Shown here in pieces: positions 32,052 to 38,093 of a stretch of DNA of 64,000 nucleotides. The stretch comes from Picochlorum sp. SENEW3 (taxonomy: Eukaryota): contig CP120453.1 of NCBI GenBank assembly GCA_034226945.1, positions 744,001-808,000 on the forward strand, read 5' to 3'. The translations under genes were made by a program, and so were the position numbers. The first letter of the stretch is position 1, and every line of letters starts with the position of its first letter. Under the pieces are notes generated by a model that made no database searches, had not been told where the DNA came from, and worked only from the letters and a program-made list of their open reading frames with translations.

Positions 32052-32373
32052 TCGGTGATAGTATTTTGCTCCTCTCCAATGAATGAAATTTTATATAAAG
32101 AATTTCTTTAATATAAAGAAATGCATCCTGTCGGTTCTGTGCCGGAACTAGATCAATAAGAAGTGATTTGGCTCCTCCAGCTGCTGCAAGGCAATGAAGC
32201 CACTCTCTCGTAGTATTCTACTGTCCAACCCCACCCTATATTATTAGGATATTCTACCATGCATAGTTTTACGTCATTCCATCGTTCAAGCGCTTCCAGA
32301 TTGCGCCACCAGGCAGGTCCACATTGTATTATACTGTCGGAAATTCGAAAAGTAACGCTATCTGTGTCGAATG

Positions 32374-32466
32374 AGGAAAAGGTCGCGCGTTCGAGCCGCG
32401 TAGCGGGTGGTCAAACAACTTTACACTCAGCCCGCTTAGCTCAGCTGGAAGAGCGTTTCCTTCCTA
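32374..32466 (+). tRNA. trnR-CCU: Circularly permuted tRNA-Arg(CCU): 3' half 32374-32409, 20-nt spacer, 5' half 32430-32466
   Basis: Reassembled 73-nt cloverleaf: acceptor GCCCGCT/AGCGGGT+G73, D arm GCTC-AGCTGGAA-GAGC (G18 G19 A20), anticodon stem TTTCC/GGAAA with loop TT-CCT-A|A, T arm GCGCG-TTCGAGC-CGCGT. Confidence 0.9.
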
Positions 32467-34200: not shown

Positions 34201-34299
34201 TCTTGTAAATTCACGTATAAAAGAGTTGACACAGTGTTCGACAGGTCTCATGGTAGATTGGCGTCCTCAATGGCAAAAGCAAAAGTAAGCGTTGAAATA

Positions 34300-34396
34300 T
34301 TCTAATCAAGCCCCATGGACCGGACTCGGGCACGACCGCATTGCATGTGCATCGCGGTCGACAGGATTCGAACCTGCGCAGCTTGCGCTACTTGAT
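34300..34396 (-). tRNA. trnS-AGA: Circularly permuted tRNA-Ser(AGA): 3' half 34396-34353, 13-nt spacer, 5' half 34339-34300
   Basis: Reassembled 84-nt class II cloverleaf: acceptor GCGGTCG/CGACCGC+G73, D arm CCC...GGG, anticodon stem CTTGA/TCAAG with loop TT-AGA-A|A, variable arm AGC-GCAA-GCT, T arm GCAGG-TTCGAAT-CCTGT; T4 runs follow at approx. 34284-34275. Confidence 0.92.
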
Positions 34397-34664
34397 CATT
34401 AGATATATGCATTTGGCAAAATATTCACGAATAATAAAATATCGAGTTCCAGGGGCGGACCCATATTCGCCGATATACAGCGTCCGTGATACAATAATAA
34501 CCCACTAGGAATATGCGCCAACGTATAGATATGCTGTCCAAGCATAACGCACACCATACACCAGTATATACATGGTCCCAACACGAATGCGTTCCTTACT
34601 GTCTCCTGTCTGGAGCTTTCTACACAAAGAATTTTGTTCTCAAAAGGATATCTTTACAAATAAT

Positions 34665-36227: not shown

Positions 36228-38093
36228 ATGCGGGTTATATCCCAGCATAACGGACATGGCGTGGCCACGAGGAAACACGTGGTCAGCAGAACAACTCTTG
36301 GGCGACGTCGTGTTCTTTCAGTTTCAGCAGCTGTGGCGAGTCCTACTACTTCTGGTAAATCCATGAATGCCATAACGACAAAGGAGCAGGAGCAATTGCA
36401 GATGGAGATGGGTTTTTGTCGAATTAATCAACCATATTCTCCAGACTTGCTTCAGCAGCAGGTTTTTTCGGATGCTTCTTCGATTCTTTCGACAGTATCC
36501 AGGTCAATATACATGTTTTCAAATATACTTGGATTTGCATTCAATTTATACATGGATAGAGGGAATGATACGCCGAGTCTGGTCAAGCGCCGTGCGACGG
36601 AACTGAGGGATATGTTGACAAAGCTTGGTCCGACCTTTATTAAAGCCGGTCAGGTCCTAGCCAATCGGCCAGATATTCTGAGGGAGGATTATATGAATGA
36701 GCTGATTGTGTTGCAAGACGATGTTCCGCCTTTTTCTGATGAAGAGGCGTTTAAGATTTTAGAATTGCAGCTTGGGAGACCATTGGGGGAGGTGTTTTCA
36801 TCAATCTCAGAGCAGCCTGTGGCTGCTGCGTCTCTGGGGCAGGTGTACAAAGGGGTGCTTCGCGATACAGGAGAAGCTGTTGCTGTCAAGATACAGAGGC
36901 CTGGAGTGGAGCCTATTATTTATAGAGATTTGTTTATTTTCAGGGCAATTGCCAAGATGCTCAATCCGTTTGCTTTGGCTCGGTTGGGATGCAATGCAGA
37001 GTTGATTGTGGATGAGTTTGGAGAAAAGCTGTTGGAGGAATTAGATTATGTTCAAGAGGCGAGAAATCTGGAGGATTTTAGGAGTAATTTCATGAATGAT
37101 GATTATGTGAAGATTCCGTGGGTGCGACGGGATTTGAGTGGTCCAAAAGTGTTGGTGATGGAATGGATTGATGGGATTCGTTGTACTGATGTGGCACAGC
37201 TCAAGTCGTCCGGGATTAATTTAGATGAGTTTATTAGAGTGGGTGTGGTGTCTGGCCTTCGACAGTTGTTGGAGTTTGGACTGTTTCATGGAGATCCCCA
37301 CCCAGGAAATATTTTTGCCATGAGGGATGGGAGGATTGCGTATGTGGATTTTGGAAACGTGGCAGAACTGTCACAAACGAATAAAGAAGTACTCATAGAT
37401 GCAGTTGTACATGCTGTGAATAAGGATTATCAGGCCATGGCCCAGGATTTCATCAAGTTGGGATTCTTGGCTCCGGGGACGGATGTGAGACCCATTGTGC
37501 CAGCCTTGGAGAAGATTTGGGCGGATTCTATGGGTCGCTCGCTTGCAGATTTTAACTTTAGAACGGTCACGAGCAAGTTTAATGAAGCTGTGTATGAATA
37601 TCCTATTCGGATTCCTGAAAGGTTTTCGCTCGTGATTCGATCCTTGTTGACTCAGGAAGGAATTTGTTTGACGCTCAAGGCAGATTTTCACTTTTTAGAA
37701 GTTGCATATCCCTACGTTGCTCGAAGGCTGTTGACCGATGAAGACCCGGCGTTGCGGCAGCGATTGTTCCAGGTGCTTTTCCAAGATGGTAAATTTAGAT
37801 GGGATCGATTGGAGAATCTCCTCACCCTGGCAAACCAGTCGAGCGGCTCTGTTGATTTATCATCCACCGTTGCAGATGGTGCTAGACTGGTTCTTCTGGA
37901 TGAAGAGCTCAGGCAGCAGCTGCTCATAGCGTTCACCGAAGACGATCGCCTGCATTTTGAGGAGTTGCAGCGGATACTCAATTTGTTGCCCTCCAACAGA
38001 GGAAGTGACATCCTGAGGTCCAGTGCAAGAAACTTTCCAAAGATTGCCCGTGATTTGGCCATTCAATGGTCTGATAGAATCCTAGAAAATTAA
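36228..38093 (+). CDS. ABC1K1: Plastid ABC1 atypical kinase, ABC1K1-like
   Basis: LGPTFIKAGQVLANRPDI, AAASLGQVY, VAVKIQRPG, FHGDPHPGN, DFG. Confidence 0.88.
   Translation: MRVISQHNGHGVATRKHVVSRTTLGRRRVLSVSAAVASPTTSGKSMNAITTKEQEQLQMEMGFCRINQPYSPDLLQQQVFSDASSILSTVSRSIYMFSNILGFAFNLYMDRGNDTPSLVKRRATELRDMLTKLGPTFIKAGQVLANRPDILREDYMNELIVLQDDVPPFSDEEAFKILELQLGRPLGEVFSSISEQPVAAASLGQVYKGVLRDTGEAVAVKIQRPGVEPIIYRDLFIFRAIAKMLNPFALARLGCNAELIVDEFGEKLLEELDYVQEARNLEDFRSNFMNDDYVKIPWVRRDLSGPKVLVMEWIDGIRCTDVAQLKSSGINLDEFIRVGVVSGLRQLLEFGLFHGDPHPGNIFAMRDGRIAYVDFGNVAELSQTNKEVLIDAVVHAVNKDYQAMAQDFIKLGFLAPGTDVRPIVPALEKIWADSMGRSLADFNFRTVTSKFNEAVYEYPIRIPERFSLVIRSLLTQEGICLTLKADFHFLEVAYPYVARRLLTDEDPALRQRLFQVLFQDGKFRWDRLENLLTLANQSSGSVDLSSTVADGARLVLLDEELRQQLLIAFTEDDRLHFEELQRILNLLPSNRGSDILRSSARNFPKIARDLAIQWSDRILEN

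Follow-up and report, generated by a model that had tools for sequence, protein, structure and literature searches.

The gene reported here has its closest described counterparts in Micromonas pusilla and in the nucleomorph of Bigelowiella natans, each with a permuted tRNA-Ser(AGA) gene. Both genes are listed as type II in Table 1 of a review by Soma (2014; PMC3978253), from Maruyama et al. (2010), with an intervening sequence of 64 bp in the former and 5 bp in the latter, and these two entries substantiate the statement, made in an initial annotation of the present locus, that serine tRNAs split between positions 37 and 38 had been reported before. The permuted tRNA genes of green algae are described in the same review as being of type II, with a junction of the relaxed hBH form, an AT-rich region upstream and a T stretch downstream, and class II tRNAs are said there to tend toward permutation. 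In C. merolae, on the review's account, junctions occur at four positions (20/21, 37/38, 50/51 and 59/60) and some genes carry extra introns, and the title of the earlier paper by Soma et al. (2007), which the review describes, refers to expression through a circular RNA intermediate.

Within the Trebouxiophyceae, the paper on Auxenochlorella UTEX 250-A (Plant Cell 2025; PMC12636532) states that the set of tRNAs returned by tRNAscan-SE was incomplete and goes on to describe permuted tRNA genes discovered afterwards, the example in its Fig. S1 being trnP-UGG. The trait was therefore already in print for this class. A review from 2026 (PMC13578239) names no carriers other than Ostreococcus tauri, B. 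natans and red algae. No report of a permuted tRNA in Picochlorum was found in the literature searched, in which the Auxenochlorella paper was the sole relevant match.

The host and its demand for tRNA-Ser(AGA)

The window, by which is meant the whole 64-kb stretch of DNA that was analysed, is gene-dense and eukaryotic, with genes for condensin subunit 2, CBF/Mak21 and ABC1 kinases. For one of the ABC1 kinases (36228-38093) the nearest named match, at 99% identity, is a protein of Picochlorum sp. BPE23, and the next named matches, in Chlorella and other trebouxiophytes, stand at 72% or lower; the placement of the host is based on this one protein. Picochlorum belongs to the class Trebouxiophyceae and lies outside the prasinophytes. 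The suggestion in the initial annotation that permuted serine tRNAs might here be extended to another chlorophyte class is thus right in so far as the alga is a trebouxiophyte and not a prasinophyte, but as an extension of the trait it had been pre-empted by Auxenochlorella (PMC12636532). TCT and TCC together make up 346 of the 863 serine codons in the 23 long open reading frames of the window, so that a tRNA-Ser(AGA) is needed.

Detection of permuted genes and chance controls

Neither ARAGORN nor Rfam (at the gathering threshold) found a conventional tRNA in the unjoined 64-kb window, and the Rfam tRNA model gave no match, not even a partial one, to the unjoined segment 34100-34600 at E values up to 10. 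Permuted genes were sought by a junction scan in which both strands were searched for a 7-nt segment followed by one base, by 0-120 bases and then by an acceptor-type complement; the flanks of each candidate were swapped and the resulting constructs were given to ARAGORN with anticodon-loop introns allowed, an approach that detects junctions at 37/38 only. Two of the 10,265 candidate junctions in the window yielded a tRNA across the joint, namely tRNA-Ser(AGA) and tRNA-Arg(CCT), against none of the 30,475 candidates in control copies of the window, one of them reversed and two dinucleotide-shuffled. At other loci the scan was seen to report intact conventional tRNAs lying within one flank as well, a caveat that is harmless for the window because there is no conventional tRNA there and both matches span the joint. 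When canonical T-arm hairpins, with a 5-bp stem and a TTCRANY loop, were counted across the window, there were two, one in each permuted gene. The tRNA-Ser(AGA) locus is more than a chance resemblance.

Anatomy of the permuted tRNA-Ser(AGA) gene

The serine gene lies on the minus strand, where the 3' half comes first and a short spacer separates it from the 5' half (Table 1); with its junction at 37/38, the gene is of type II. When the halves were joined by their coordinates with a script, ARAGORN recognised a tRNA-Ser(aga) of 84 nt in which the acceptor stem (7 bp) and the anticodon stem (5 bp) are perfect, while the D stem (4 bp) and the T stem (5 bp) have one G-U pair each. The consensus features U8, G18G19, U33, the T loop TTCGAAT, the long variable arm and G73 are all intact. 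A long variable arm and the discriminator G73 are identity elements of tRNA-Ser, and the 13-nt variable region with its stem-loop, G73 and the anticodon AGA together characterise the molecule as a class II tRNA-Ser. In the initial annotation the boundaries of the halves and the spacer had been placed exactly to the base, as was seen on re-reading the minus strand and running ARAGORN on the joined halves; the two perfect stems, the long variable arm and G73 of the 3' half and the T4 runs beyond the gene were also as it had described them.

Table 1. Coordinates of the permuted tRNA-Ser(AGA) gene, its flanking features and the companion tRNA-Arg(CCT) gene in the window
Feature	Position	Strand	Remarks
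AT-rich TATA-like stretch TTTTATTATT	34430..34439	-	34-43 nt upstream of the Ser 3' half; TTTTAT core kept in L016
Upstream box GAATATTT	34419..34426	-	Identical in L016; may belong to the promoter region
Leader CATATATCTAATG, ending CTAATG	34397..34409	-	13 nt; CTAA = 34402-34399; TG = 34398-34397
3' half, positions 38-73	34353..34396	-	44 nt: 3' strand of anticodon stem, long variable arm, T arm, 3' strand of acceptor stem, G73
Spacer between G73 and G1	34340..34352	-	13 nt; without a T4 run
5' half, positions 1-37	34300..34339	-	40 nt: 5' strand of acceptor stem, U8, D arm with G18G19, 5' strand of anticodon stem; ends in A37
Anticodon AGA	34306-34304	-	Within the Ser 5' half
Trailer	34285..34299	-	First T joins A36 and A37 in the 3-nt bulge of the predicted 5' cleavage site
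Two T4 runs, likely RNA polymerase III terminator	34284-34281 and 34278-34275	-	16 nt past the junction
Permuted tRNA-Arg(CCT)	32374..32466	+	3' half 32374-32409, 20-nt spacer 32410-32429, 5' half 32430-32466; 2 kb from the Ser gene

ARAGORN fits the rejoined halves to a canonical cloverleaf with eukaryotic consensus nucleotides, whereas the minimum free energy (MFE) structure from RNAfold prefers a competing helix. The MFE of the serine pre-tRNA is -45.4 kcal/mol (z = -2.49, with 3 of 200 shuffles folding as well), and the corresponding fold retains the acceptor, T and variable arms as well as the helix between leader and anticodon loop. The cloverleaf as drawn, with its hBH motif, has a free energy of -20.1 kcal/mol, or -32.8 kcal/mol with those pairs enforced. 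The competitor is a 7-bp helix that displaces the D arm and anticodon stem in precursor and mature RNA alike, the MFE of the latter being -36.1 kcal/mol as against -27.2 kcal/mol for its cloverleaf. The failure of RNAfold to pick the cloverleaf is regarded here as a limitation of nearest-neighbour models when applied to tRNAs, and the folding results are not taken as support for the gene.

The junction motif and putative signals for transcription

The CTAA of the leader pairs perfectly with positions 32-35 of the tRNA (U32 U33 A34 G35), forming a 4-bp central helix atop the anticodon stem, and this helix is flanked by bulges of 3 nt, TG|A38 at the 3' site and A36A37|T at the 5' site. The outer helix amounts to 2 bp in the window and is absent in the related metagenome contig L016 described below, and the motif is for that reason a relaxed hBH, with the anticodon stem as its inner helix, and not a strict hBHBh'. 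The central helix itself is perfect over its 4 bp and in exact register in both sequences, with the 3-nt bulges on either side. The pairing, the bulges and the shortness of the outer helix had all been pointed out in the initial annotation, and its description of them was accurate. The geometry is that of a canonical 37/38 intron, and ordinary eukaryotic tRNA genes with such introns have the same cleavage sites and the same base pair between position 32 and the residue that precedes the 3' site by 3 nt, a pair whose role was reportedly the subject of work by Baldi et al. in 1992. With the exon order swapped, the 'intron' becomes a free leader and a free trailer, and an extra step by RNase P and tRNase Z would be called for to open the circle.

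An AT-rich stretch, TTTTATTATT, is found at -43 to -34 relative to the 3' half, T4 runs follow the gene, and the unit itself, from the leader through to A37, contains none. It is proposed that TTTTATTATT is a putative upstream promoter element for RNA polymerase III, by its likeness to the TATA-like elements of permuted tRNA genes (PMC3978253). The A box, in the 5' half, and the B box, in the 3' half, occur in reversed order, which makes it probable that transcription depends on the AT-rich element upstream. A further T4 run stands at 34422-34419 (-26 to -23), so that the start would be expected downstream of it and the leader would be at most about 22 nt long.

The companion tRNA-Arg(CCT) gene

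The second permuted gene gives, on joining of its halves, a tRNA-Arg(cct) of 73 nt in ARAGORN, with a G1-U72 wobble pair and a T5 run 12 nt past the junction. Its helix between leader and anticodon loop is only 3 bp long and has a C-C mismatch at position 35. Both of the tRNA genes in the 64-kb window are thus permuted, and both have their junction at 37/38. The two share a further detail, in that the leader ends in AATG directly before A38 (34400-34396 on the minus strand and 32370-32374 on the plus strand) and the A that precedes the predicted cut by three bases is paired with U32; this resemblance could reflect a common signature for processing or be coincidental.

Conservation in relatives

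Relatives were sought with two patterns, of which one was strict (T arm, exact acceptor strand, gap, exact acceptor strand, D arm) and the other looser (T arm, gap, D arm). The strict pattern found no locus in the metagenome collection. The looser pattern gave 20 loci there, one of which, on the contig designated L016, is a permuted tRNA-Ser(AGA) gene; the other 19 were rejected, being either conventional tRNAs with a chance or tandem match behind them or a tRNA-like repeat. The same looser pattern gave no permuted gene among five loci in prokaryote genomes, nor at the single locus on a viral contig.

L016 represents the syntenic locus in a related alga and is 82% identical to the window over 1,705 nt that include the neighbouring TPR gene. 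Conservation is concentrated in the permuted unit, with 43 of 44 positions identical in the 3' half and 39 of 40 in the 5' half (82/84 together) and all 13 in the leader, compared with 21 of 37 in the next stretch upstream and 18 of 40 in the 40 nt of trailer sequence past the junction. The two differences within the halves (C69 to T and G4 to A) form one compensatory change in the acceptor stem, G4-C69 to A4-U69, although the covariation comprises this single pair because only one diverged relative was found. The spacer has 12 nt instead of 13 and has diverged in its middle part, and a T6 run is found at a distance similar to that of the T4 runs of the window. The unit as a whole is therefore kept in L016 with its stems maintained, and the pattern is what selection on the separate halves for mutual pairing, and on the leader for processing, would be expected to produce.

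Contigs assembled from public sequencing runs of other studies also bear on the locus. Four such runs (X1, X5, X7 and X8), out of 19 entries, were used, and the serine gene is covered by the contigs of X1 and X5, those of X7 and X8 being without it. None of the four showed a joint between the halves, a result that, coming from assembled contigs, has no bearing on expression either way. The five differences listed for the X5 contig (34290, 34291, 34347, 34406 and 34433) all fall outside the halves, that at 34347 being in the spacer, and the X1 contig has one difference within the halves, at 34369, where G57 in the T loop is replaced by A and a purine is thus kept. Run X5 also contains a separate contig of 217 nt over 34250-34440, consisting of the tRNA gene with about 45-50 nt on each side. 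This contig is unjoined to those of the neighbouring genes, has adapter letters at one end and is indistinguishable from stray DNA; it was not counted as evidence of transcription because the RNA status of the run is a guess and the contig passes the T4 terminators.

Two sets of sequences encountered among the matches deserve mention in their own right. Nine contigs of one assembly set (L001, L002, L005, L006, L007, L009, L012, L018 and L020) have in common a tRNA-like 3' part whose T arm reads GGTTCGAATCC. Next to it comes a conserved segment of some 100 nt that contains GAGAAGCCGAGTCCGGTAGGGAGCTC, and ARAGORN finds no tRNA across the whole; this looks like a repeated tRNA-derived element. 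L004 and L011, two records of the same sequence, hold a dense array of tRNA genes for Ile, Ser-GGA, Ser-TGA, Val and Ser-GCT, the introns of Ser-GGA and Ser-TGA measuring 44 and 22 nt respectively, and this array was rejected as a candidate for permutation, the genes being conventional and intron-containing.

Weighing the explanations

The interpretation that best accounts for these observations is that a Picochlorum-type green alga has at this locus a nuclear gene for tRNA-Ser(AGA) that is circularly permuted, of type II (37/38) and functional, and to this reading, judging from sequence, we would assign a probability of roughly 0.85. The central proposal of the initial annotation, a permuted tRNA-Ser(AGA) with a 4-bp central helix in a BHB-type junction, is in this way supported by ARAGORN, by the control scans and by the syntenic contig with its compensatory change. 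An important consideration is whether the locus might instead be a non-functional relic, left behind when two intron-containing tRNA-Ser genes in tandem were stripped of their outer halves, with the 3'-5' remainder now decaying unused. Duplication and loss is indeed the published scenario for the origin of permuted genes (PMC3978253), and an exact 8-nt copy of CCTGTCGA, a part of the 3' half from the T stem and acceptor, is found at 34238-34245 on the minus strand, some 54 nt past the 5' half. However, 28 of 500 shuffles score as well, so that the copy is non-significant, and it is not kept in L016, while upstream similarity to a lost 5' half was not found (474 of 500 shuffles being equal or better). 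A decaying remainder is also difficult to reconcile with consensus tRNA features that are all intact, with halves that have kept 82 of 84 positions and one compensatory pair between flanks of 45-57% identity, and with the full conservation of the leader on which the cleavage motif depends. This explanation is accordingly considered improbable.

It is less probable still that the two halves give rise to separate RNAs, whether as a split tRNA joined in trans or as stand-alone small RNAs resembling tRNA halves. Split tRNA genes do occur in some archaea (PMC13578239), but the gap between the halves is only 13 nt, without a T4 run and too short for a promoter, the first terminator comes after the 5' half, the acceptor strands pair directly over the spacer and the leader pairs with the loop in the exact register for splicing. 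As for chance resemblance or an artefact of assembly, the lack of a match with standard tRNA finders could be cited, and there is nothing else in its favour; the same arrangement is present in an independent metagenome contig and in the contigs of two runs from other studies, and the control scans gave 0/30,475. That reading is effectively refuted already by L016, the run contigs and the controls, and its residual probability is close to negligible.

Proposed expression and processing

If the locus is a functional permuted gene, its expression can be envisaged along the lines of the processing model in the review of permuted tRNAs by Soma (2014; PMC3978253). RNA polymerase III would start from the upstream AT-rich element and stop at the T4 runs, producing a transcript in the order leader, 3' half, 13-nt spacer, 5' half and trailer. 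The halves would fold into the tRNA body across the spacer, and the CTAA of the leader would pair with positions 32-35 to give the relaxed hBH on the anticodon stem. The tRNA-splicing endonuclease would then be expected to cut after A37 and before A38, and tRNA ligase to join A37 to A38, yielding a circular RNA, from which RNase P and tRNase Z would remove the spacer and so open the acceptor end. Addition of CCA and deamination of A34 to inosine would presumably follow. The run A36-A37-A38 is the recognition motif for the formation of i6A37, and in the serine tRNA it would arise only upon ligation.

Comparison with known genes, origin and significance

As tabulated and described in the 2014 review, the genes of M. 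pusilla and of the B. natans nucleomorph are like that of Picochlorum in isoacceptor, in having a type II junction at 37/38 without an extra intron, in the hBH motif, and in the AT-rich region upstream and T stretch downstream. They differ from it in the intervening length, which is 13 nt in Picochlorum as against 64 bp and 5 bp, the comparison being one of tabulated descriptions and not of sequence, and in the host, which is a trebouxiophyte as opposed to a mamiellophyte in the case of M. pusilla and a nucleomorph in that of B. natans. C. merolae, according to the same source, shares the upstream TATA-like element, the T-stretch terminator and a BHB-type junction that is proposed to be cut and ligated to a circle, but it uses four junction positions, whereas both genes of the window use 37/38 only. 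The Auxenochlorella genes, as far as they are presented in that paper, resemble the present one in belonging to a member of the Trebouxiophyceae, in being missed by a standard finder and in having the 3' part before the 5' part; the example given is, however, trnP-UGG, and Picochlorum is a different lineage within the class. The layout of the Picochlorum tRNA-Ser(AGA) gene is a rare one, but the kind of gene and the presumed processing pathway have already been described.

After Auxenochlorella, Picochlorum becomes the second trebouxiophyte lineage with permuted tRNA genes, and wider phylogenetic sampling of this kind bears on the question of whether permutation in green algae is an ancestral trait or one of repeated origin. 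Since the serine gene is missed by standard tRNA finders, annotations of Picochlorum are likely to be without tRNA-Ser(AGA), tRNA-Arg(CCT) and perhaps others. Table 1 of a Picochlorum genome paper (PMC6141220) gives only 42 and 24 nuclear tRNAs for two genomes of the genus, counts low enough to suggest that several tRNA genes were missed. Missing tRNAs would distort analyses of the tRNA set and of codon adaptation in a genus that is used in biotechnology.

A broader possibility, which must be regarded as tentative and on present evidence rather doubtful, is that the 37/38 permutation of tRNA-Ser(AGA) goes back to one ancient event, an origin of the age that the initial annotation had also suggested, and is common by descent to the Mamiellophyceae, the Trebouxiophyceae and the green alga from which the Bigelowiella nucleomorph came, and that the nuclear tRNA set of Picochlorum is permuted in large share. 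The permutation of two out of two tRNA genes in the window fits with this, as do the published tRNAscan-SE counts, which are consistent with it but are no proof. If it is true, the permutation of tRNA genes would run deep in the Chlorophyta, where it would have been widely overlooked, and would not be a prasinophyte oddity.
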